This document shows positions 1 through 45,220 of a DNA stretch of 64,000 nt, in pieces. The position numbers were made by a program, and so were the translations under genes. The DNA lies in IMG/VR virus record IMGVR_UViG_2693429913_000001, positions 7,081 through 71,080 of that record, one strand, 5' to 3'. Origin of the DNA: a virus. Taxonomy: Duplodnaviria > Caudoviricetes. Numbering within the stretch: position 1 is the stretch's first letter; each line of letters opens with the position of its first letter. The notes beneath the pieces were generated by a model. The model was not told where the DNA came from. It did no database searches and saw only the letters and a program-made list of their open reading frames with translations.

Positions 1-1004
1 CTCGTAACAATCATTAAGCTGTCTTCCACATCATCAAAGGAGATCTTCTTCTCTCCCTTGGTATATAAGTTCTGGTCTTTTAGGAACTTATCAAGGACAA
101 AGGTAAAGGAGTTTTTTACGAAATCCTCTGGTGTACCACCATTCTCTAGCCATGAAGAATTGTGATAATAACGGCTAAATGAGGTCTCACGATTGAAGCT
201 GAAATAGATATCTGCTTTAATCTTGTAATCCTTATCATTCTCGTTGTCTCTTCCTTTTTGTTCCGTAGTCCATTTCACAACATCAGTAAGAGAGTGTTCC
301 TCTGAAGAAATGGATCGAATATAGTCCTTCACACCATCTTGAAAGTAAAAAACTTGCTCTTCCTCTAGTTGTTCATTCTTAAAGAGAAACTTTAAACCTC
401 CATTCACGATCGCTTGATCTTGAAGGGTGGTAATAATGAAATCATCATCAATCTCACTTTTCCCACGAAACACTTCTGCACTCGGTCTCCAAGTGATCGT
501 TGTACCGATCGCTATTTTTCCCTCATTTTTGCAAATCTGTATTCCATCCGATGTTTCTACGCCTTTTTCATACTCAACCTGATAGACCTTCCCACTTGAA
601 GCATGCACTGTTACTTGAAAGAAATCGGAAGTATAATTCGTTCCCGTGGCTCCAACGCCATTCGTGCCCAAACTATACTGATAACTTCCACCGTCTTCTT
701 CATTGTTCTGATACTTTCCACCTGCCCACAGCTCATCAAATACTTTCTTATATGACCAGTCTCCCACTCTATTTTGATCCATGGGAACTCCACGTCCAAA
801 GTCACGCACAGTTACTGAGCCATCTACATGCTTTGTAACGATAATCTCTTTACCCCATCCCGCTCGATGCTCATCAATGGAGTTTCCTAAAATCTCTAAG
901 AAGGTATGGTTATGAGATTCCAACCCAATCGAAGCTGGCTTGGCTCGCACTCCGCCCAGTATACCCAGCGATTGAATGGAATCTGAAGTATATGTATGAC
1001 TCAA
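1..1004 (-). CDS. type IIA DNA topoisomerase subunit B (GyrB/ParE-like), 3' end outside the window
   Basis: Not in the ORF track (no stop in window). N-terminal part translated by hand from TTG at 1004 (RBS GAGGGAGG): MSHTYTSDSIQSLG...LEILGNSIDEHRAGWG...VTVRDFGRGVPM...ELWAGGKY...SLGTNGVGA, the GHKL ATPase motifs of GyrB/ParE. Confidence 0.9.
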   Translation of the reverse strand, partial: MSHTYTSDSIQSLGILGGVRAKPASIGLESHNHTFLEILGNSIDEHRAGWGKEIIVTKHVDGSVTVRDFGRGVPMDQNRVGDWSYKKVFDELWAGGKYQNNEEDGGSYQYSLGTNGVGATGTNYTSDFFQVTVHASSGKVYQVEYEKGVETSDGIQICKNEGKIAIGTTITWRPSAEVFRGKSEIDDDFIITTLQDQAIVNGGLKFLFKNEQLEEEQVFYFQDGVKDYIRSISSEEHSLTDVVKWTTEQKGRDNENDKDYKIKADIYFSFNRETSFSRYYHNSSWLENGGTPEDFVKNSFTFVLDKFLKDQNLYTKGEKKISFDDVEDSLMIVT

Positions 1005-1069
1005 AGAAGAGACCTCCCTCATTCATTTATGCTACTAGATTACACTGCTTGTCCGAACGTCTAAAGGAA

Positions 1070-1099
1070 CATACTATGACAAACGATGGGTACGGTCAA
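1070..1099 (-). promoter_or_regulatory. putative promoter of the topoisomerase gene
   Basis: Minus strand TTGACC-17-TAGTAT (sigmaA-like); also readable as AC-N16-CATAGTATG (sigmaK-like). Confidence 0.35.
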
Positions 1100-1115
1100 T
1101 GTGATTTTTTCTTTT

Positions 1116-2735
1116 TCAAGCTAAGGAATAGTCATCGATCATGATTTGTGGGACGACGATCTTTTTCCTTAAACCAAAGTGGAACCACTCATTCCATCTC
1201 AGTTCGCCCACTACCGCTACTTCATCGAAACAACTCAATTCAGAACCATATTCTCCATCCGTTCTGAATTTGATTAGTTCACAATCATCCAAAGTATCAA
1301 TCTTTATTGTATCCTTCATTTTACCGATGACAACTCTTTTATCTACCACAATCCCATTGACTTTTACAGATATCTTTGGGAATCCATTCCCTGTTATCCG
1401 ATTGATTCTCTCAATTTCGTCGATATAATTCGGGATCTCCGTTATATTGATTTCTAGATCGTACATAAGAGATGGCTCGTTTATTTGTGGGATATGCCAA
1501 TCAATATACCGTCCAAAGTCTTGTAGCCGCTCTTCCTTGAGAAACAATCCCCCAGCACTCTCATGTCCTACTGCCTCAATATTCCCAAACCCTTGGAGGA
1601 AAGTCTTAAAAGGAAAGCCATTATAGGTTCGAAAACTACCTGAGATTACTCCATCTATGGCACTCCCTACAATAGCAGGGCGTTGAAAAGTTTGAGCTAT
1701 TTGCTGTGCAATCAAACCATTGAACCCCTTACTGGCTTGTTCATCAATGACGATCATTACTTTTTGTTTATCATCCAAATGCTTCATATAGCGGTTTGCA
1801 ATCTCTTTCTGACGCTTTTTTCTTTTCTCATTTATGCTCTTCATTTCTTGCAAGATCTTATGGCAAACTCTATCATCATCTTCCAAGAGTAAATCAATCG
1901 CCAACTTGATCTTATCCATTCTCGCAACACCATTTAATAGTGGAGCAATGGTAAATCCAATCACACTTGCGTTCATCTTATCGATGTTGATGTTAGCACC
2001 CTTTAACAGTTGTTTGATACCTGTATTTTGTATGTTCTGGAGCCCATATTGGATTATAAAGCGATTCTCCAGTACATCTACTTTCATTACATCGGCGTAC
2101 ATCCCAATTGCCACCAGATCTAAAAACTGATAGGGATCAACTTGTCCCAAAGTATCCTCCATCACTTGAATCACCTTGAAAACTACGCCTGCCCCGCTAA
2201 GGTGTGTATTCGGATATTCGCAACCTTCTTGTTGTGGATTGACGATGGTTGCATACGGATTGAGACGTTCAATAGAATGGTGGTCGAGGATGATGATATC
2301 GACCCCCTGTTCCTCTCTAATTTCCTTACATATCTCAACATCATTGGAGGATGAATCGATAATGATTAAGAGATCGGTTTCCTCTTCGATTTGATTGATT
2401 TGATTCTCTATCCCGTGCCCCTTACTACGCTCACTGTATGTGTAGTAGAGGTTGTTCGAGTAATTATTAAGGTATCGCAACATCGTACTCGTTGCTGTTA
2501 TCCCATCTGCATCTGGATCGAACGAGAGGCAAATGCGCTCGTTTTTCCCAATTGCTTTTATAATCCTGTTGCTGGCTTCCTCGATATTCTTCATCAGATA
2601 CGGATCATATAATTCTTGTATAGTCGGATTAAGGAAGCGATCCATATCTTTTATTCCACGGACTTTGGCAATCTTATCGTAAACGGAGTCGTGTTTTCTA
2701 AACGACTTTTCTGGTCTTCTCTGTACCCAATCCAA
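1116..2735 (-). CDS. recJ: RecJ-like ssDNA exonuclease (DHH family; SPbeta YorK-like)
   Basis: DPDADG, ILDHH and GHESAGG motifs; N-terminal DPYLMKNIEEA typical of RecJ. Confidence 0.9.
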   Translation of the reverse strand: MDWVQRRPEKSFRKHDSVYDKIAKVRGIKDMDRFLNPTIQELYDPYLMKNIEEASNRIIKAIGKNERICLSFDPDADGITATSTMLRYLNNYSNNLYYTYSERSKGHGIENQINQIEEETDLLIIIDSSSNDVEICKEIREEQGVDIIILDHHSIERLNPYATIVNPQQEGCEYPNTHLSGAGVVFKVIQVMEDTLGQVDPYQFLDLVAIGMYADVMKVDVLENRFIIQYGLQNIQNTGIKQLLKGANINIDKMNASVIGFTIAPLLNGVARMDKIKLAIDLLLEDDDRVCHKILQEMKSINEKRKKRQKEIANRYMKHLDDKQKVMIVIDEQASKGFNGLIAQQIAQTFQRPAIVGSAIDGVISGSFRTYNGFPFKTFLQGFGNIEAVGHESAGGLFLKEERLQDFGRYIDWHIPQINEPSLMYDLEINITEIPNYIDEIERINRITGNGFPKISVKVNGIVVDKRVVIGKMKDTIKIDTLDDCELIKFRTDGEYGSELSCFDEVAVVGELRWNEWFHFGLRKKIVVPQIMIDDYSLA

Positions 2736-2871
2736 ACGCTTTCGCTCCTTCTTCCTCTAGATGAAAAAACTCCTTAGAAAAATATAAATTCAATTCGGCC
2801 ATTTCTTTATAGCCTCTAGCAAGCACGCTCCATCTTTCCTTCCAAACATTCTTTCCCACGCCTTCTTGCAT
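2698..2871 (-). CDS. small AimX/MazE(EndoAI)-like MazF-binding peptide, 57 aa
   Basis: Below the ORF-track cutoff. RBS GAGGTGG, ATG at 2871; MQEGVGKNVWKERWSVLARGYKEMAELNLYFSKEFFHLEEEGAKAFGLGTEKTRKVV carries GYxEMAxxNLxxSxE..HLE.E, like the C-terminus of Bacillus MazE and like AimX (recalled sequences). Confidence 0.7.
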   Translation of the reverse strand: MQEGVGKNVWKERWSVLARGYKEMAELNLYFSKEFFHLEEEGAKAFGLGTEKTRKVV

Positions 2872-2880
2872 GTGACCACC

Positions 2881-3942
2881 TCAAACATGGATTGGATAAA
2901 TATCATTCTGAACAAGCCGATTCCAAATATCTATTCCTTGATCAATAGGAGAGTTTTTTTGATGTAGTAAATTCTGTGTATCAAACATTCCAAACACCTG
3001 ATGATCTTGGAGTTTCATTGCTTGGTTCTTTATGTCTTTAGCAGATTTACCTTGATCATAGCAGAGTATGATCTGAATATCTTTTCCTAAACTCTGGAGC
3101 AGACGAGCCTGCTCCAGAGAGAGTTCACTTCCCCCGATTCCAACTGTATTATATATTCCATGACTACATGCTTTCATCGGGGATTTTTCTGCTTCGAAAA
3201 CATAGACTCGTCCACTTTCAAGTATATGTTCGAGAGCCCGATGATAATTAAACAGCTCTAAACTATTTTTACATTTGTATGGATAGAGATACTTCCTATC
3301 ATCTTCCTCGTCTTTCATAATACGCCCCTTCACACCAACTAATTGCCCTGATTGGTTTCGAATCGGTATGGTGATTCTTTTGGTTTCCAAATCAAAACCG
3401 ATTTCATATGATAGTTGTGTTTCATATGAAATTCCTTCCTCGATCCACCCTTGAAAAGGAAGAGGGCTATCTTGAAAATAGTATTGATTCAGGATGGACT
3501 CAGGAAGAATGGGATTAGTCATGTGTTCGTTAGCTGTTTTTCTCTCTTTGCGCACTTTTACTAGCCAATCGATGCTATGCACCATTTTGTCTAATTGTAG
3601 TTGGCATATTTGGCTAATATATCGTTTTGAGTTAAATACATCGCTTGGAATTTCTGCCCCAGTTTTCCGATGATGTATATAAGAAACAAGTGCAAAAATA
3701 TCACCTGAAAAGTCAGCTCTACTTCGAATCACACAGGGCAAAGACTCCGTTAAACGGACTTGTACGGATCTTTTATTATCCGACTCTGGAAGACCACAAG
3801 TCAGGAGTGACCCTCGCTGTTCATACTTTAGATGATGGCATCCAATTGAATCGAGAAGAATCTCCATTTTTTCTGGACAATCTAGAAGTAGTTGTTTAAT
3901 CATTTGAAAATCATTCAATACTAAATCGCTCATTCGAAGCAC
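2881..3942 (-). CDS. DNA primase (YorJ-like, TOPRIM)
   Basis: RITIPIRN..GQLVGVKGR, VFEAEKS and LCYDQG TOPRIM motifs; adjacent to the helicase. Confidence 0.85.
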   Translation of the reverse strand: MLRMSDLVLNDFQMIKQLLLDCPEKMEILLDSIGCHHLKYEQRGSLLTCGLPESDNKRSVQVRLTESLPCVIRSRADFSGDIFALVSYIHHRKTGAEIPSDVFNSKRYISQICQLQLDKMVHSIDWLVKVRKERKTANEHMTNPILPESILNQYYFQDSPLPFQGWIEEGISYETQLSYEIGFDLETKRITIPIRNQSGQLVGVKGRIMKDEEDDRKYLYPYKCKNSLELFNYHRALEHILESGRVYVFEAEKSPMKACSHGIYNTVGIGGSELSLEQARLLQSLGKDIQIILCYDQGKSAKDIKNQAMKLQDHQVFGMFDTQNLLHQKNSPIDQGIDIWNRLVQNDIYPIHV

Positions 3943-3956
3943 CTACTCATTATAAG

Positions 3957-5471
3957 CTACACTTTCGACATCCTCATAACATCAAAATAAGCTACTTCCT
4001 TCCATGTATTGAACGTATAGTTCACCTCATACACAATCCCTGTCTCCGCTTCGCCCTCACGGTTCTTCGCAATAAAGAGGAGCATGTACATTTTCTCTAT
4101 ATTCAAATCGTATTTTCTTTTTCTCCATTCACCTGATGTCTTAAATTTTTCCTCATCCCAATTGTAGGCATAAATGGCATTGCTCCCACCTTCATACTCA
4201 TCCGAAAATATCAGTCGCCCCATCAATACAACTCCAGCAACTTCTACTATTTCAAGCGATTTCCCAATCGATGATAGATCTAGGGTTCGATATTCCTTCC
4301 CAATCTTCAACTGCACTGTAGCCAACGTTGCACAGTTATTGGCATCTGGTTTGATCACATCATAGAGAGTTTGGGCTGAATTACTAAACGCTTCCCACCG
4401 AGCATGATCCCCATTTCCCACTTCAGGCTTAAAGGTATCGAAAAACACGTACTTGTAACCGAGAGGTCTATATAGTTCAATCCGACTGGTGACATCATCA
4501 ATGCGATACTTTGTTAACCCAACGAACTTAATCATGTCAGAACGGTGCTTTCTTAACCAATCTCTCGCTTCTAACAATTTACTCTTCGTTTCTTCATCGA
4601 AATTACCCTTTGCTAATTTTGAACGAGGGATTGGCTTATTCAAGATACTTGAGGCAACAGTAGCTATAAGCAGTGTTCTCCACTTCAATACGCCTTCCTC
4701 ATTTGCGAAAATAATTCCTTTTTCATTACTTCGTAGTAGACTCATGATCCCAGTATGCATGCCAAACGAGGTTTTCCCCATTCCAGACGACATCACGAGA
4801 TAGATTAAAGTCCCTTCTTTCCAACCTTTAACTTTGTTATTGAGACGAGGAGTTTCAAAAAATGGCATCCCTACCGTTTCTCCCCGATCCATCAGCTCAA
4901 TCGTTTCATCTATATGATCAAGAAGGTTGTGTTCCTTCACTTCGCCAGAGTTAATGTGCATAAATGCCTCTTTGTTCTTGAACTGGAAGAACATCTTCAA
5001 TTGAGAGAGGTTCATTTTCACCAGTTTATCGATTAAATGAGGATTATGAGTATTAATCAATCCGTCTTTCGAAAACTTCCTTAGCGTCCAATATTTCTGC
5101 ACTTCTGTAAAATGATACTCATCATTTTCTTTATCTATATCACATTCGCTTTGTAGGAGTCGTATCGTTTCATAACCGCCAAACTCGTGATAGTAATGTC
5201 CAATGCCTTTGCTATGTTCCTTCTCATATCTGGAGTTTACAAAGGAATACACAGTGACATCATCAAAGGTACGTACCCCATGATCATACATCTCTTTACC
5301 AAGCCAATAGTAGTAAAACCAAATATCTTTGGTAAATGTGTCCCGTTCAATGGTATGACTTCGATATTTTTGGTAGAGGCTGGGTGTCCTCCATAAATAT
5401 CCAACATATAGTTGCTCATGTATTTCACTCGGAGTAATAAACTTGTGCTCATGGGTTTCTTGTTCTTGCAA
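3957..5471 (-). CDS. DnaB-like replicative helicase (YorI-like)
   Basis: Walker A SSGMGKTS, FFDTFK Walker B, ATVQL, IAKNREG. Confidence 0.88.
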   Translation of the reverse strand: MQEQETHEHKFITPSEIHEQLYVGYLWRTPSLYQKYRSHTIERDTFTKDIWFYYYWLGKEMYDHGVRTFDDVTVYSFVNSRYEKEHSKGIGHYYHEFGGYETIRLLQSECDIDKENDEYHFTEVQKYWTLRKFSKDGLINTHNPHLIDKLVKMNLSQLKMFFQFKNKEAFMHINSGEVKEHNLLDHIDETIELMDRGETVGMPFFETPRLNNKVKGWKEGTLIYLVMSSGMGKTSFGMHTGIMSLLRSNEKGIIFANEEGVLKWRTLLIATVASSILNKPIPRSKLAKGNFDEETKSKLLEARDWLRKHRSDMIKFVGLTKYRIDDVTSRIELYRPLGYKYVFFDTFKPEVGNGDHARWEAFSNSAQTLYDVIKPDANNCATLATVQLKIGKEYRTLDLSSIGKSLEIVEVAGVVLMGRLIFSDEYEGGSNAIYAYNWDEEKFKTSGEWRKRKYDLNIEKMYMLLFIAKNREGEAETGIVYEVNYTFNTWKEVAYFDVMRMSKV

Positions 5472-5485
5472 TTGAAATCACCGCC

Positions 5486-6064
5486 TCATAGGAAATCCGA
5501 TATATCCATTTCATCTGATTTTTTTGCTCCTACAAAGGTATATTCTCTATCCTCATGATGTTGATCCTTGGTATATACCCTTCGTTTAGAAATTTCCTCT
5601 CTCATTTCTTGTTCTCTTCTCTGTTTTTCAATGATCGGCAACTTATCACTCATAATCACTAAACCGTATCGAAATGCCTGCATAAATCCGCTAAACTCTT
5701 TCTTCCTGTTCCAATAGCGAATCGTTTCAGAGCAATGACTATATGCTTCTGAAATTAGTGAGAAATCATAACCTTCCTTGGTTTTCTTTATACGTTTCCC
5801 ATAAATCTCTTCCCCATTGCGTATTTTTTGTAGCAAGGGAAATGCAACCGTTGGGATAATTTTCACATCATATATCTCTTTGATGACATCAACTAACTGA
5901 TCTAATTCATTTCTTTCCTTATCTTTAAACTCTCTATCTTCTAGATGCTTCTTAAAGCAATCCTTATGGTAATACTTCTTTTGTTTGTATTGCGTTTCAA
6001 ATTCCATTTCATCTTTTGTTGTGTCAGATACTTTACACCAATTGCATTTTAGTATTCGAGCCAT
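5486..6064 (-). CDS. YorH-like protein (N-terminal Zn-binding CxxC...HxxC; possible helicase loader/initiator)
   Basis: CNWC...YYHKDC; position upstream of the helicase; acidic C-terminus DISDFL. Confidence 0.6.
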   Translation of the reverse strand: MARILKCNWCKVSDTTKDEMEFETQYKQKKYYHKDCFKKHLEDREFKDKERNELDQLVDVIKEIYDVKIIPTVAFPLLQKIRNGEEIYGKRIKKTKEGYDFSLISEAYSHCSETIRYWNRKKEFSGFMQAFRYGLVIMSDKLPIIEKQRREQEMREEISKRRVYTKDQHHEDREYTFVGAKKSDEMDISDFL

Positions 6065-6076
6065 AATTGCCTCCGT

Positions 6077-6361
6077 TTATTCCAGCTTTTGATGTTTTTC
6101 CAATGCCATAACTGTCATCACTGCATAGTTAGCTAAGTCAAGAAGAGTATCTGCAATGCTTTCATCTTTTACTTTTGCTTCATTAACCGATAATTGCTTT
6201 AATCTCTTCATCTTGTCATCCAAACGAATAATGGAAGATAAGATTCCATACTCTCTAAATTGGTCTTCGAAACTATTTCCATAATCAGCATTCTTCTTTA
6301 TATATATTTCATGCATGGAATCCAGTACCGCCTTATGGAAATCTGTATTGGATCGGTTCAT
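6077..6361 (-). CDS. DUF1599 / nucleotide-modification-associated domain protein
   Basis: KKNADYGNSF...RLDDKMKRL...DESIADTLLDLANYA signature. Confidence 0.8.
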   Translation of the reverse strand: MNRSNTDFHKAVLDSMHEIYIKKNADYGNSFEDQFREYGILSSIIRLDDKMKRLKQLSVNEAKVKDESIADTLLDLANYAVMTVMALEKHQKLE

Positions 6362-6391
6362 ATAAGCAAATATCCTCCTAAGTTATATAAA

Positions 6392-6418
6392 AATAGTAGC
6401 CCTGTACGAGCTACTATT
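6392..6418 (-). terminator. intrinsic terminator-like hairpin
   Basis: AATAGTAGC/GCTACTATT stem followed by a T-run on the minus strand. Confidence 0.5.
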
Positions 6419-6429
6419 CTGTTGGTATA

Positions 6430-7499
6430 TCAGTGTTGTTTCAATTCGTCTAAATAATCGATTGCCTTTTTTAGTGCATCCATATCATTTGATTTTCGGA
6501 AGTTAGCATCACCAAGGATTTCTCGAAATTTCTCTGCAACCTCTTTTTTTCTATCACTACTTAACTCCGCAACTTTACCCTGAATCTCCTCAATTAGTTC
6601 AGAGAGAGATTTATGTTCTCCTAGACTCTTGTTCGCTTGAGAACTCGTTTTGGCTTGTTCTATTTTGGCGGTCTCTATTGCTTCAGTGTCATTACTATAT
6701 AGTTCTAGAATCGTTTTATTGAATTCACATAAAAATGTCTGAACATCCAAATCTATTTCAGTAGGGAAGTTGCGAAATCTCGTTCCACAAAGAATATTGC
6801 CGTCACTACGGAATCTCAACTTCCGCCTTTCAATTGGCTTTCCATCTTTTCCCTTTTCAACAAATAAGTCTCCGTAGATAATCATATCTGCTTCACAAGC
6901 GATAATGTCTGATGTCTTAGTTTGCAAGTTAAACGTTGTATAGTCGTATTCAAATCCATCTCGGTTAGTAATTTTTTTATTTTTTTCATGCCCGATTATA
7001 AAAACACCAAATCCTGCCTTTAGCGATCAATCTGCTTATAAATCTCTTCTGATACGAGGGTGTAACCTTTACCCCATGGAATGTCGGATATGTCAGTGTA
7101 TCGTTTCCCATCTTGTCTACCCTCTCGCTTTGATATAAATGATATAGCATATCGTTCCAATGCAGTGATGGTATCGATAATGATAAAACGAAAAGGAATT
7201 TCGTCTTTGTATTCAATCAGCTCATCAATTACCTCGATAAACCCCTTACTTTCTACATTCGACGATGAATCTTCTGCGTAGTCAAAGTCTGTAACTGGAA
7301 TTGCCTTTACGCCCGATATCGTCTTATATCCTATTTCTGTAGCCAATAGTAAAATAGGGTCCCAACTTCCATAATGTTCTTTAGCTAAATCAAGTGCAAA
7401 GGTTGTTTTTCCAAACTTACTTTTTCCTAACATACTAATGAAATAGCCATCCAACGAAGCGACAGGCTTATTTGGTTCCAAATGTTTTAAGAAAGACAT
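6430..7499 (-). pseudogene. YorG-like AAA ATPase (Sak4/AAA_24-type) split by a frameshift at ~7020
   Basis: 7020..7499 has Walker A GKSKFGKTT and IIIDT, then stops at ...IDR*. The -1 frame continues LKAGFGVFIIGHEK...FNLQTKTSDII directly into ORF 6430..6927. Confidence 0.8.
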
Positions 7500-7539
7500 G
7501 TATCAATCTCCTTTTCTAATAGTTACTTAATGATGTCGA

Positions 7540-8661
7540 TTAAAAAGGCAATTCCAATTCATCATCTAAGTCATGTTTCGCCTTAAACGGGTTTGATCTA
7601 CTGCTACTTCTACCACCTAATTCTTCTACCAGCTTGTCCTCTCCAAAAAGTACATCCTTCACGAAATCTTCTTCCTGATACACTTTTTTGTCCCATGCTC
7701 GAACACCTTCTATCTGTAATTCGCTTATGTATGACTTAGAGGACCAAGAACGTGCATGGTTCGGTTTTGCTCGCCCTCCTAAAGCTAACAACAAATCCTC
7801 TTCCTCACGAAAATCTTCTTGGATAATAACTCGATTCACTATATTACCGTCAATTTTTATTACATCACCAAAATGAAACTTTTTTTGGAGGTTTGATGCC
7901 AATCGGTACATTGTTTCATCTATGCCACCTTTACCATCTGAAAAATCGAGGGCAAATTCACTATCAGCAAAGTTTGTTCTTTTATCAATCATACGCCCTG
8001 TCACATAAGCTTTTGAATTATCTCTATCTAACTCTACTCCAATGAACACCATTGCTTGTTCAAAAAATGAAAGTTCTTTGAATTCATTTGAATCAAATTC
8101 TATGTCTTCTTTCTGTTTTGTAATTCTTTTGATCCAAAAGTTTCTACTTCTTTTTTTTTCACCATTTCTACTTTCATATTCGCTATAGTTGATTTCACCC
8201 TCTATTAGAACAGAGTCGCCATTTTTGAAACAATCATGTATGTATTTAGAAGCAGTATATCTTGGCATCCCTTCCTTAACGATTCTTCCCGTTTCTTCAT
8301 CACTCACAAAAATCTTAGTTTGGAGAACTTCATATCCATCTGCTTCTAGTTTCTTCTTATTCTTAATCCACTCGCCATAGGCAACCATCTCTCCTTTGTA
8401 TTTAACCTTTTTTACTTTAGCTTCATTTGCCAATTTTTGATTCCATAGATGTACTTCTTTTGGTTGATAATCATGCATTTCAATTAGGATCTCATTGGTT
8501 TCAGAAGTCTTTACTCCAAAACGTAATTTTCGATACGTCTCTCCTTTTCGTTTCCCTTGCGCAGATACTTCTTCGTTAAAAGCCCCTTGTCGATCTAATC
8601 TAGTTAATTTACCCATTAACTTAAATTCATTTTTAGTTTGCTTCAATTCATTTGCCATCAA
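7540..8661 (-). CDS. phage single-stranded DNA-binding protein (YorF-like)
   Basis: OB-fold-like segments (NEFKLMGKL; GDSVLIEGEINYSEY), SSB-type acidic tail DDELELPF, first gene of the replication operon. Confidence 0.75.
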   Translation of the reverse strand: MMANELKQTKNEFKLMGKLTRLDRQGAFNEEVSAQGKRKGETYRKLRFGVKTSETNEILIEMHDYQPKEVHLWNQKLANEAKVKKVKYKGEMVAYGEWIKNKKKLEADGYEVLQTKIFVSDEETGRIVKEGMPRYTASKYIHDCFKNGDSVLIEGEINYSEYESRNGEKKRSRNFWIKRITKQKEDIEFDSNEFKELSFFEQAMVFIGVELDRDNSKAYVTGRMIDKRTNFADSEFALDFSDGKGGIDETMYRLASNLQKKFHFGDVIKIDGNIVNRVIIQEDFREEEDLLLALGGRAKPNHARSWSSKSYISELQIEGVRAWDKKVYQEEDFVKDVLFGEDKLVEELGGRSSSRSNPFKAKHDLDDELELPF

Positions 8662-8709
8662 TACACCACCAGTTATTATATAATTAATTTTATGTACATA
8701 ATCTAAAAA

Positions 8710-8744
8710 TTTATGGAAAGAGTATAATTAGCTCTTTCCATAAA
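8710..8744 (-). terminator. 13-bp stem hairpin in the leader of the replication operon
   Basis: TTTATGGAAAGAG...CTCTTTCCATAAA followed by TTTTT on the minus strand. Confidence 0.55.
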
Positions 8745-8763
8745 GAATGATTTTCATGCTTTT

Positions 8764-8793
8764 ATTATATCATTATTTTTATGTGCCAGTCAA
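8764..8793 (-). promoter_or_regulatory. sigmaA promoter of the replication operon with an operator-like motif in the spacer
   Basis: TTGACT-18-TATAAT with extended TG; spacer GGCACATAAAAATAAT matches the recurrent motif. Confidence 0.7.
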
Positions 8794-8797
8794 ACAC

Positions 8798-9256
8798 CTA
8801 CAGTATGTACTTTAAAATGCTAAAATTCTTGTTCTTCTTAAAATTTTCAAAGATACACTCAAGTGTAATCTTGCCATTATTGAGAGATTGTTTAATTAAG
8901 GATATATCAGTCACTTCAAATTGCAATAGAAACGTTGCTTCAAAAGCTATAGAAATTCCTTTGTTGTTACAGAGCTTTAAAAACTCTTCAAGCGTTATAC
9001 TAGAGCTCGATATTCTATACTCCCTGTAATCCATTAAATCCTCAATAGCATGCATATTGGTTCCGTAGTAGTTTCTGTAAAAATATTCACGTTCTCCGCT
9101 TGTTTTTAGTAATAGAAGCGCAATTGATGGTAAACATAAGTCATTGATAAGATTTTCCCAATCATCATTTGCTTTAATTAACATGAGATTCTCCTTCACA
9201 TAAAAATAGTATGAGATTCTCTCGTACATTTTTTCACTATAACAATGAACATTCAT
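8798..9256 (-). CDS. hypothetical protein (AT-rich)
   Basis: 152-aa ORF co-oriented with neighbours; no recognisable motif. Confidence 0.5.
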   Translation of the reverse strand: MNVHCYSEKMYERISYYFYVKENLMLIKANDDWENLINDLCLPSIALLLLKTSGEREYFYRNYYGTNMHAIEDLMDYREYRISSSSITLEEFLKLCNNKGISIAFEATFLLQFEVTDISLIKQSLNNGKITLECIFENFKKNKNFSILKYIL

Positions 9257-22257: not shown

Positions 22258-23277
22258 TTACAAATCAAGCGTATCCAGAGATTGCAGTAATTTAATCTGG
22301 GTACTCCTATCTGCTTGTTTTACTAAATTCAACAACTGCTCATGTGATAAATCATCAAATCTTTCAATGGGTATATGATTATTCACATCGACGATAACTA
22401 AATCGTCAAGTGATTTCTTCGCCATATAATCATTTAGAGTGGTCGTAATAGAGGCATGATTCCCCTGTTGTTGCATGGCTTTCAAGTCATAGTTCGTTAT
22501 CACAGCAACTTCATTAATACTTGATTTTTTAAACGAATGGAAGGCGATCTTCCTGTCTTGGAAGTCCATATTATCTCTTAGATAGCTGATTAACCTATTC
22601 ACACTTTTATTAGTAAGTCGAAAAATTTTTTCTCCACCTACCAATTCTTTTTGCTTCATCAACGCATCATGAAGATCAGATGAGATTTTTTTGTAATCCC
22701 ATTTGTTCCCTTTGCCAAGAGTCCTTAAGAACCATACCCCATCACGTTCGATTAAACTGTCCCAAGTCAAATTCAGGATAGAGTCTTTTCGAAATGCAGT
22801 AGCATATGCCACTCGAATTAACAGCCCCTTTTCAAATCCCTTACGTGTTGTACCAACTAATTTGATAGCTTCTATGATTTCTAAATGTGTCATAGGATCA
22901 TAGGATACCTTGTCATGTTCAGCATATCGTTCCACTTCAAACCATGATGGTTTCACATCAAAACCGTACTCTGCTAATTTCTTATAGCATTTTTTCAGAG
23001 CGGAGAGACGAGAATTGACTGTTGCAGTTTTATATCGTTGTCGGAGCTGTACCTGATAAGACTCAATCTGCATTTTCGTGAATACCAAATCCCCTTCTAC
23101 TAGATCATCTACTGCCTTGCGACACATTGTCATGAAAAAATCTCTTATCGCAACCTCATAGGAAGTCCTTGTATGAATACTATTTTGCTCAATTCTCTCT
23201 AAAAATGTTTTAATACATTCCCATATGCTACTTCCAGTACTGCCATTTAACTGTAGTAAGTTATTTTGAAAGCTCAT
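22258..23277 (-). CDS. tyrosine recombinase/integrase-family protein (YopP-like)
   Basis: SAM-like N-domain, YATAFRKDS (R), GKGNK (K), FHSFKK, GNH...TTLNDY. Confidence 0.8.
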   Translation of the reverse strand: MSFQNNLLQLNGSTGSSIWECIKTFLERIEQNSIHTRTSYEVAIRDFFMTMCRKAVDDLVEGDLVFTKMQIESYQVQLRQRYKTATVNSRLSALKKCYKKLAEYGFDVKPSWFEVERYAEHDKVSYDPMTHLEIIEAIKLVGTTRKGFEKGLLIRVAYATAFRKDSILNLTWDSLIERDGVWFLRTLGKGNKWDYKKISSDLHDALMKQKELVGGEKIFRLTNKSVNRLISYLRDNMDFQDRKIAFHSFKKSSINEVAVITNYDLKAMQQQGNHASITTTLNDYMAKKSLDDLVIVDVNNHIPIERFDDLSHEQLLNLVKQADRSTQIKLLQSLDTLDL

Positions 23278-44247: not shown

Positions 44248-45220
44248 ACCATATCGAAAAATTGAAAACGTAGACACTGAATTTTGGGATATCCAAGCAA
44301 ACCCCTACAACAAAGAATTAATCGAAGAATTTCTATCTCAACAACACCTCTCCCCTGCTACACTCAAACAGTATACTTCTGCCTTAAAAGTGTTTGCAAA
44401 ATGGATATACGACTTTGCCCGAAATAAGAATATCCATGAATTAAAACCAAGGGATGCTTTAAAGTATCAAAACTGGCTCATCAGCTTAAATCTCTCCTCT
44501 AACTCAATCAAGTTCAAACGGAGCGCTGTCTCCAGCCTTTGTGGATTCATTGAGTTATACTACCACGACGAACATCCAACCTTCCGAAATATCTTTACCA
44601 AATCTATCCCTGCTGTCCCTAAGTCAAATATAAAAGAGAAAGTCCCTCTCACAATCGAAGAGATCCAAACCCTCATTGACGAATTAACCCGTCGTCAGGA
44701 ATGGCAAAAGATTGCTTACATTTGCTTCACTTACTCCACAGGTTGTCGACGTGAAGAGACACGTCAGTTACGAACAGAAGTTGCTACCTATGAGAAGTAT
44801 AAAGAGAAAAATTTCTATGTCAGCCATAAGATACGAGCCAAAGGGCGTGGCAAAGAAGGAAAACTCCGTCACTTTGCATTTGACGAGAGATCCATGAAAG
44901 CAATTCAAAAATGGTTATCCCATCGTTCTAATCAAGTCGAGCAAGACAATTGCCCTTATGTATTTGTCCGAAAGACGAAGAACGGCTATCAGCAAATCTC
45001 TGCTAATAGCTTCAATTTATGGTGTAAGGAGTTTAGTGAAATCCTTGGTGGAAAAACCGTATATCCCCATTTATTCCGAAGCTCCCGAGCTACCAATGCT
45101 GTTATCGAGGAAGGTAAAGATATTCAATCTGTCCAGAAATTACTGGGACATGAAAGCTCCCAAACAACAGAAATCTATGTCGTTCGGGATGATTCGGATG
45201 ATCTAGACGATTTGTTTTAA
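44240..45220 (+). CDS. tyrosine recombinase (YomM-like) within the tail operon
   Basis: Intact R-K-H-R-H-Y: STGCRREE, GRGKEGK, PHLFRSS, LGHESSQTTEIY. Confidence 0.9.
   Translation: MAQPYRKIENVDTEFWDIQANPYNKELIEEFLSQQHLSPATLKQYTSALKVFAKWIYDFARNKNIHELKPRDALKYQNWLISLNLSSNSIKFKRSAVSSLCGFIELYYHDEHPTFRNIFTKSIPAVPKSNIKEKVPLTIEEIQTLIDELTRRQEWQKIAYICFTYSTGCRREETRQLRTEVATYEKYKEKNFYVSHKIRAKGRGKEGKLRHFAFDERSMKAIQKWLSHRSNQVEQDNCPYVFVRKTKNGYQQISANSFNLWCKEFSEILGGKTVYPHLFRSSRATNAVIEEGKDIQSVQKLLGHESSQTTEIYVVRDDSDDLDDLF

Follow-up and report, generated by a model that had tools for sequence, protein, structure and literature searches.

A putative stand-alone mimic of the MazF-binding MazE helix between the primase and RecJ genes of a phage replication gene string

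The IMG/VR virus record IMGVR_UViG_2693429913_000001 (Duplodnaviria; Caudoviricetes) was analysed over its positions 7,081 to 71,080, a stretch of 64,000 nucleotides (nt) hereafter called the window. Between the genes for a DnaG-type primase and a RecJ-like single-stranded DNA (ssDNA) exonuclease lies a small open reading frame (ORF), here named P0001, which a first-pass annotation based on the letters alone had singled out as a hidden mimic of the antitoxin MazE/EndoAI and of the phage protein AimX. Read from the minus strand, P0001 starts with ATG, stops with TAG and encodes the predicted 57 amino acids (aa), MQEGVGKNVWKERWSVLARGYKEMAELNLYFSKEFFHLEEEGAKAFGLGTEKTRKVV. The ribosome-binding site ascribed to it is also present: the minus strand reads GAGGTGG-TCAC-ATG, with 7 nt from GAGG to the ATG, which itself lies 9 nt past the primase stop, and the final base of GAGGTGG doubles as the first one of the primase stop interval. 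A Shine-Dalgarno sequence of this type pairs well with the anti-Shine-Dalgarno of Bacillus.

At its other end, P0001 overlaps the start of RecJ, as the first-pass annotation had reported; the two reading frames differ, and P0001 residues 46-57 share their nucleotides with RecJ codons 1-12 (Table 1). The AAGGAG Shine-Dalgarno sequence of RecJ is made of P0001 codons E40-E41-G42 and stands 9 nt 5′ of the RecJ TTG. Since P0001 overlaps RecJ and contains its Shine-Dalgarno sequence, the arrangement suggests that translation of RecJ is coupled to that of P0001. The codons of the MazE-like motif (residues 17-43) lie entirely 5′ of the RecJ start, and conservation of this motif is therefore not due to a coding constraint from RecJ. 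Analysis of the ORF calls and of PHROGs matches placed P0001 in a string of genes on one strand, with gaps of at most 14 nt around its neighbours, in the order phrog_2367 (function not assigned), two Sak4-like pieces, two proteins without assigned function, DnaB-like helicase, primase, P0001, RecJ and a topoisomerase II-like gene. Its described wiring into a replication operon thus agrees with the gene order.

Table 1. P0001, its parts and its neighbours, in window coordinates.
Feature	Position	Strand	Basis or detail
P0001, putative stand-alone mimic of the MazE C-terminal (MazF-binding) helix	2698..2871	-	ORF and homology
Shine-Dalgarno-like GAGGTGG of P0001	2875..2881	-	read from sequence
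Codons of the MazE-like motif (P0001 residues 17-43)	2743..2823	-	sequence and alignment
AAGGAG Shine-Dalgarno of RecJ	2745..2750	-	read from sequence
Out-of-frame overlap of the P0001 tail (residues 46-57) with RecJ codons 1-12	2698..2735	-	38 nt
RecJ-like ssDNA exonuclease, 539 aa, TTG start (2735)	1116..2735	-	phrog_2484, E 3.3e-159
DnaG-type DNA primase, 353 aa	2881..3942	-	phrog_47
DnaB-like replicative helicase, 504 aa	3957..5471	-	phrog_19
Topoisomerase II-like gene, next after RecJ	3-1022	-	
Best promoter-like site, TTGACT-18-TATAAT with TG, 11/12	8764..8793	-	consensus scan of first 9 kb

To determine the relationships of P0001, its sequence was compared, alone, with 177,635 distinct PDB sequences. 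The best match was AimX (8anv_C, 'Arbitrium putative lysogeny regulator', E 0.014) and the second best was 4me7_E ('Antitoxin EndoAI', E 0.32), both aligned on the same RGY-EMA-NL motif of P0001; the EndoAI and AimX strings quoted in the first-pass annotation agree with these two chains. A single NCBIfam family was matched, antitoxMazE_Staph (NF041459, E 4.8e-4), with residues 17-41 on profile positions 16-40. Profile A1, composed of P0001 and the C-terminal parts of nine syntenic phage homologues, reached AimX at E 8.3e-13 and EndoAI (4me7_E) at E 2.9e-5 in the PDB, with the next match at 0.33. A leave-one-out profile was made from the syntenic proteins of nine other phages, without P0001, and run with filters off on 52,605 six-frame segments of at least 30 aa covering the whole bacterial genome that contains the window. 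P0001 came out at the top (E 1.9e-9, 38.7 bits), followed by the host chromosomal MazE (9e-6), and everything else was at 2.7 or above.

The exact P0001 protein was found to be already present in a public protein collection with the precomputed Pfam tag PF27083.1, which makes the terms 'hidden' and 'unannotated' an overstatement. PF27083 appears in the ESM-Atlas listing as MazE_antitoxin_C; the family was not found in the literature searched. As a lead only, ESM-Atlas places P0001 nearest to clusters of 52-66 aa named 'MazE/EndoAI antitoxin, C-terminal domain-containing protein' (score 0.90, 169 of 256 features in common). Taken at the level of sequence comparison, the PDB searches, the NCBIfam match, profile A1 and the leave-one-out profile bear out the proposed similarity and confirm P0001 as a homologue of phi3T AimX and of the C-terminal helix with which MazE/EndoAI binds MazF; the PF27083 tag is in agreement. 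For YosL of the SPbeta-group phages, the third protein with which it had been linked, a direct blastp on the genome reached P0001 only at E 0.23.

Among 50,697 phage records searched by tblastn, 34 Bacillus-phage records were matched, the best being FADO, PJN02, PK-3 and 2S-4; no database relative is closer than FADO gp40 (44% identity over 45 aa, E 5e-4), and 60 non-Bacillus records gave weak matches (E ~6-7) to an unrelated scaffolding gene. Megablast of the replication region on the same records returned nothing, and relatives are visible only at the protein level. In PHROGs, P0001 matches two families without assigned function, at their C-termini. A protein homologue search with P0001 found only P0001 itself, and nothing was obtained with P0001 alone on the IMG/VR loci or with profile A1 on the genome contigs. 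Profile A3, which includes P0001, recovered 361 cluster representatives at E ≤ 0.001 from 1.84 billion proteins. In the best 149 of these, P0001 left out, 66 are of 69 aa or less (3 of them resembling truncated MazE calls), 22 have the size of MazE or nearly so (90-99 or 80-89 aa), and 38 are of 110-139 aa, the size range of YosL and of the long form described below. Nine short representatives that were looked up are unnamed or called 'hypothetical protein'.

Examination of related phages revealed a conserved syntenic gene shared by a group of large Bacillus siphophages, partly annotated as 'antitoxin EndoAI / MazE', which the first-pass annotation had missed. In all 17 loci of the synteny set (13 GenBank phages and 4 IMG/VR contigs), a MazE-like ORF lies directly upstream of RecJ and overlaps its start by 38-50 nt. 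The RecJ homologues of these loci are 49-59% identical to that of the window and align from residue 1-3; a primase homologue lies upstream in every locus that extends far enough, and the replication proteins of the related phages are 45-59% identical to those of the window. The RecJ-adjacent gene occurs in two forms. A long, YosL-sized form (124-133 aa) is present in Nate, Tsamsa, C30-3, KoopaTroopa, Sophrita, Chewbecca, Kirov, PBC2 and BcoS-136 and in L025, L027 and L028 (the sequence of L028 contains an N). A short form (49-57 aa) is represented by FADO, PK-3, 2S-4, PJN02 and the IMG/VR contig L026, all with 49 aa, and by P0001, with 57 aa and an N-terminus of its own. Several records annotate the gene as 'antitoxin endoai', 'anti-toxin MazE', 'antitoxin' or 'hydrolase/hydrolase inhibitor'; the feature tables of PK-3, PJN02, Kirov and Izhevsk hold no separate entry for it.

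The N-terminal domain of the long forms, of about 85 residues (L005 3758-4159, L006 3752-4147, L016 1270-1650 and others), matched no Pfam or NCBIfam family. FADO gp41, located between primase and the short form, was considered as a detached version of this domain and rejected (BLASTP E 3.8). Searches with the long form weakly reach (E 0.05-0.5) a Spbetavirus gene upstream of nrdI, and AimX downstream of aimR-aimP; from its position, its size and a phi3T annotation note, the gene upstream of nrdI is taken to be yosL. In the literature searched, no description of the RecJ-adjacent gene was found, and the supplements of the AimX papers may list homologues. YosL-like proteins are already said to be 'coded by many Bacillus phages' in a preprint (bioRxiv 10.1101/2023.04.27.537455). 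In related phages, the annotation places a (p)ppGpp synthetase/SpoT-like gene a short distance downstream of RecJ, in L004 at 6125-6835 (FADO gp38) and in L005 at 6130-6906 (Nate gp116); these phages may carry a second gene for manipulating the stress response next to the putative anti-MazF gene.

The conserved motif of P0001 spans residues 17-43 and reads L-A-R-G-Y-K-E-M-A-E-L-N-L...F-H-L-E-E-E-G. We aligned 12 sequences, namely P0001, seven phage homologues, one YosL-position protein, two AimX and the host MazE. In P0001 numbering, G20, Y21, M24, N28, E39 and E41 are invariant, and A18, I31 (F in P0001), E34 and H37 are nearly so. In AimX, residues M14, Y18, E20 and M21 are shared with MazE and contact the partner, according to the AimX paper (PMC10769878). 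Three of these four are identical in P0001 (Y21, E23, M24); at the fourth position, M14, P0001 has L17, also a hydrophobic residue. The mutations Y18A in AimX and Y82A in YosL are described in bioRxiv 10.1101/2023.04.27.537455 as causing loss of MazF neutralisation. An AlphaFold2 model of P0001, obtained from a 10-row alignment, displays a single helix over residues 3-45, with a predicted local distance difference test score of 91-94 for residues 11-30. The host MazE harbors a ribbon-helix-helix domain (RHH_1, residues 11-47, E 7e-7 in Pfam), for which P0001 gives no match. With 57 aa modelled as one long helix, P0001 indeed lacks a DNA-binding domain, as had been proposed.

Regarding the expression of the gene string, the promoter-like site of Table 1 is the strongest sigma-70-like site in the first 9 kb and lies just 5′ of the first minus-strand replication gene. 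It is a candidate operon promoter, obtained, like the terminator result, from consensus scans only, in which the number of promoter-like sites does not exceed that of shuffled sequences. In the same type of scan, no terminator-like site was found on the minus strand of window positions 1..9000. Further upstream in the string, the Sak4-like ssDNA-annealing gene appears to be split into one ORF at 7020-7499 (minus strand) corresponding to phrog_124 positions 31-155 and another at 6430-6927 (minus strand) corresponding to positions 189-342. The two ORFs (window 6430-7499) are separated by about 92 nt, and the gene could be frameshifted or broken, or could be a true two-part arrangement.

The window corresponds to C15:55532-119531 in a 3.19-Mb genome of 53 contigs, rated 99.95% complete. 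Contig C15 (348,646 bp) contains a block of low G+C content (~0.35-0.42) at about 20-160 kb between flanks of ~0.43-0.45. At the left edge of this block lies a large serine recombinase (C15:25518-25844, minus strand, 563-aa ORF, PF07508, 90.5 bits), which is probably the integrase of a prophage. Because of the low-G+C block and of the recombinase at its edge, we read the block as an integrated temperate prophage of about 140 kb, with approximate boundaries. Two tyrosine-recombinase-fold matches (PF00589) are also present in it, at window 44648-45190 (plus strand, 80.6 bits) and 22417-22848 (minus strand, 34.8 bits). By analogy with SPbeta-like phages, for which 10.1101/2025.11.27.690993 describes an integrase-fold repressor, one of the two could function as a repressor instead of an integrase.

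The presumed target system is present in the host, which has a canonical alr-mazE-mazF-rsb locus. Its MazF aligns with the B. subtilis EndoA of 4ME7 over all 116 residues (222.6 bits), with Thermoactinomycetaceae and Brevibacillus as its nearest named matches; the host MazE gives E 2.3e-24 with 4me7_E. Three PemK/MazF matches were detected in the genome, on contigs C18, C7 and C45 and none on C15. Beside the two other PemK genes lie antitoxins of another type, AbrB/SpoVT-like by our own reading of their sequences and devoid of the motif; apart from P0001, only the host MazE carries the motif in the whole genome. On C45, the PemK/MazF domain (55.3 bits) occupies the C-terminal half of a 202-aa ORF (L003 1360-1968, minus strand), after an N-terminal extension of about 90 residues. 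This ORF, an unusual fused PemK toxin, adjoins a 54-aa AbrB-like ORF and a serine-recombinase-like gene, and lies possibly on a mobile element.

A search for MazE-type matches covered 3 genomes of the same genus, 21 from other genera of the family and 16 from other families of the order. Each of these 40 related genomes yielded exactly one match, of MazE size, in open frames of 90-158 aa. A second, short copy is present only in the genome studied here, and it lies in the low-G+C block with the large serine recombinase at its left edge; together these observations mark the short copy as phage-borne.

The arbitrium system, whose aimR and aimP genes the first-pass annotation had not seen in the window, was searched for in the whole genome. 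Neither was found: a protein query detected no AimR; the best score with the AimR model NF038310 was 19.2 bits, against a cut-off of 70, and lay on another contig (C24); and no homologue of AimP, phi3T_92 or phi3T_93 was obtained by blastp at E ≤ 1 on all six-frame genome segments. As far as tested, arbitrium thus appears to be absent from this genome.

Based on the homology, the anatomy of the locus, its conserved synteny and the presence of an NdoA-type MazF in the host, we consider it probable that P0001 is a MazF inhibitor acting as a stand-alone MazE mimic. Its translation, its binding to MazF, the neutralisation of the toxin and the benefit to the phage are what we infer from these comparisons. 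In this mechanism, P0001 would be the toxin-binding MazE helix without the ribbon-helix-helix domain used for DNA binding and dimerisation. It would be transcribed together with the helicase, primase, RecJ and topoisomerase II genes of the prophage, would be made early in lytic growth with the replication proteins, and would probably hand ribosomes on to RecJ, whose Shine-Dalgarno sequence and start sit in its 3′ end. The helix would enter the groove at the MazF/NdoA dimer interface, like MazE, phi3T AimX and SPbeta/phi3T YosL. MazF would then stay inactive even if the labile host MazE disappeared during infection, phage transcripts would be left uncut and the lytic cycle could run. According to bioRxiv 10.1101/2023.04.27.537455, MazEF defends against SPbeta lacking yosL.

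Several observations weigh against this assignment. First, the single-sequence matches are weak (the E-values of 0.014 and 0.32, and 9 of 17 identities with the host MazE), and significance is reached at the profile level only. Secondly, the score with NF041459 is 20.2 bits, for a curated cut-off of 108, and no Pfam match to P0001 was obtained at E ≤ 10 with a library that does not hold PF27083; AimX, YosL and the phage forms were also unmatched in that library. Thirdly, the density of UACAU, which we take to be the B. subtilis MazF site and which may differ in this host, is unremarkable. Counted on the sense strand of ORFs of at least 120 aa, it is 1.35 per kb in the prophage (observed/expected 0.92) and 1.09 elsewhere (observed/expected 0.87). 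The prophage and the rest show no meaningful contrast, and this density was set aside as evidence in either direction; nothing in it points independently to a role of MazF for the phage. Within the motif, the nearly invariant Ile of INL..I is a Phe (F31) in P0001. Moreover, the position of AimX M14, where the M14D mutation abolishes MazF binding according to PMC10769878, is occupied by a Leu; among the 138 of the best 149 representatives that fit the search pattern, this position is L in 8 and M in 110. Finally, AimX also binds a phage partner, phi3T_93, and a MazE-like helix need not target MazF alone or chiefly.

This last point leads to the alternative that P0001 is a MazE mimic with a main partner other than MazF, either a phage or host protein that binds MazE-type helices or another PemK toxin. 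The use of one helix by AimX for both MazF and phi3T_93 (PMC10769878) is in line with it, as are the two further PemK-family toxins of the genome, the changed M14-equivalent residue L17 and the 16-residue N-terminal extension, which has no AimX counterpart. We nevertheless regard this alternative as unlikely: the blastp search of the six-frame segments described above gave no phi3T_93, phi3T_92 or AimP homologue, the antitoxins beside the two other PemK toxins do not carry the motif and look AbrB/SpoVT-like, and the motif is otherwise carried in this genome only by MazE, the partner of the NdoA-type MazF.

Still less likely is that P0001 is the decaying remnant of a longer YosL-like gene, kept mainly for the ribosome-binding site and start of RecJ, with a peptide that no longer matters. 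In 10 of the 17 related loci the RecJ-adjacent gene does have the long form with its extra N-terminal domain, and the RecJ signals do lie inside P0001, with a conserved overlap. However, P0001 is intact, with its own Shine-Dalgarno sequence and an ATG close behind the primase stop, and independent short forms with their own Shine-Dalgarno sequences exist in FADO, PK-3, 2S-4, PJN02 and L026. The 66 representatives of 69 aa or less, 3 of which resemble truncated MazE calls, speak against decay in the same way, and so do the conserved residues 17-43, which are upstream of the RecJ start and keep the functional residues. In addition, the C-terminal domain of YosL alone blocks MazF toxicity, as stated in bioRxiv 10.1101/2023.04.27.537455. 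That P0001 is a chance ORF or mis-call in an untranslated primase-RecJ spacer, with a coincidental motif, is very improbable despite its small size and marginal single-sequence E-values, this reading being effectively refuted by the profile A1 matches, the genome-wide leave-one-out ranking and the position conserved in 17 of 17 loci; the 361 representatives recovered by profile A3 also speak against it.

Among the known systems, the putative MazF inhibitor P0001 resembles YosL in context and AimX in size. YosL of SPbeta and phi3T, a MazE-like antitoxin of the lytic cycle represented in our loci L029-L035 and by the YosL-position protein of BUCT083, has the same C-terminal MazE-like helix. Both genes belong to an operon of replication-related genes that is not under arbitrium control (for YosL, according to bioRxiv 10.1101/2023.04.27.537455), and both would have the same presumed role, blocking host MazF for the lytic cycle; in position and timing, P0001 resembles YosL more than AimX. 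In contrast, YosL is a protein of 115-116 aa with an unrelated N-terminal domain of about 75 residues, which is toxic when overexpressed according to the same preprint, whereas P0001 has no such domain, with only 16 residues before its motif and the primase stop 9 nt upstream. In the loci examined, yosL lies upstream of nrdI, unlike P0001 between primase and RecJ, with its overlap into RecJ.

AimX of phi3T (8ANV chain C, 51-52 aa) is, like P0001, a stand-alone helix of small size, and its best PDB match. However, the aimX gene follows aimR-aimP and is controlled through antitermination by AimR (PMC10769878), while P0001 is flanked by primase and RecJ, and phi3T_93, the second partner of AimX, has no homologue detected in this genome by the six-frame blastp. 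With MazE/EndoAI (4ME7 chain E), P0001 has in common the R-G-Y-x-E-M-A-x-x-N-L helix with an acidic tail, but neither the N-terminal RHH_1 domain nor a mazF gene directly downstream. With respect to the short staphylococcal MazE of NF041459, it stays below the curated cut-off of the family. The RecJ-adjacent genes of large Bacillus siphophages (Tsamsa gp106, Nate gp113, KoopaTroopa, Thrax1-5, PBC2_089, BcoS-136 and the short FADO gp40) display the same position, overlap and motif. They are mostly of the long form and have one or two extra genes between them and primase, whereas P0001 is short, follows primase directly, harbors a unique 16-residue N-terminus and belongs to an integrated prophage in a different host lineage, neither B. 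subtilis nor B. cereus. The most fitting label for P0001 is that of a stand-alone MazE_antitoxin_C-domain protein from the phage lineage with RecJ-adjacent genes of this kind. Our verdict is that it would be an arbitrium-independent anti-MazF antitoxin mimic of the AimX/YosL kind, the principle of which is already established.

Experimental work on phage-encoded MazE mimics has so far been confined to the SPbeta group of B. subtilis phages, in which they are intertwined with arbitrium signalling. The P0001 locus would show the same weapon in another phage lineage and another host, as a bare helix, without arbitrium and tied into the replication operon by an overlap. The conserved synteny at 17 loci points to neutralisation of NdoA-type MazF as a routine need of large Bacillales siphophages, and together with the MazE-type match in 40 of 40 related genomes, this would support MazEF as an anti-phage system beyond B. 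subtilis. The short and long variants offer a natural panel for mapping what makes a good MazF-inhibiting helix, and the conserved RecJ overlap is a testable detail. The assignment also has value for annotation, most short forms in the databases being unnamed or 'hypothetical'.

Tentatively, and as a possibility rather than an expectation, we propose that the MazE-helix gene overlapping RecJ is a conserved counter-defence cassette, translationally coupled to the replication machinery, of a clade of large Bacillales siphophages comprising Tsamsa-like and FADO-like phages and the lineage of this prophage, plaque-formers included, and that this gene has lost its N-terminal domain repeatedly, leaving peptides of the size of AimX. 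If this is true, phage replication throughout the order would face NdoA/MazF as a general barrier, which many unrelated phages have to disarm, and the arbitrium-controlled AimX of phi3T would be a late regulatory offshoot of an older replication-operon antitoxin, and not the reverse.

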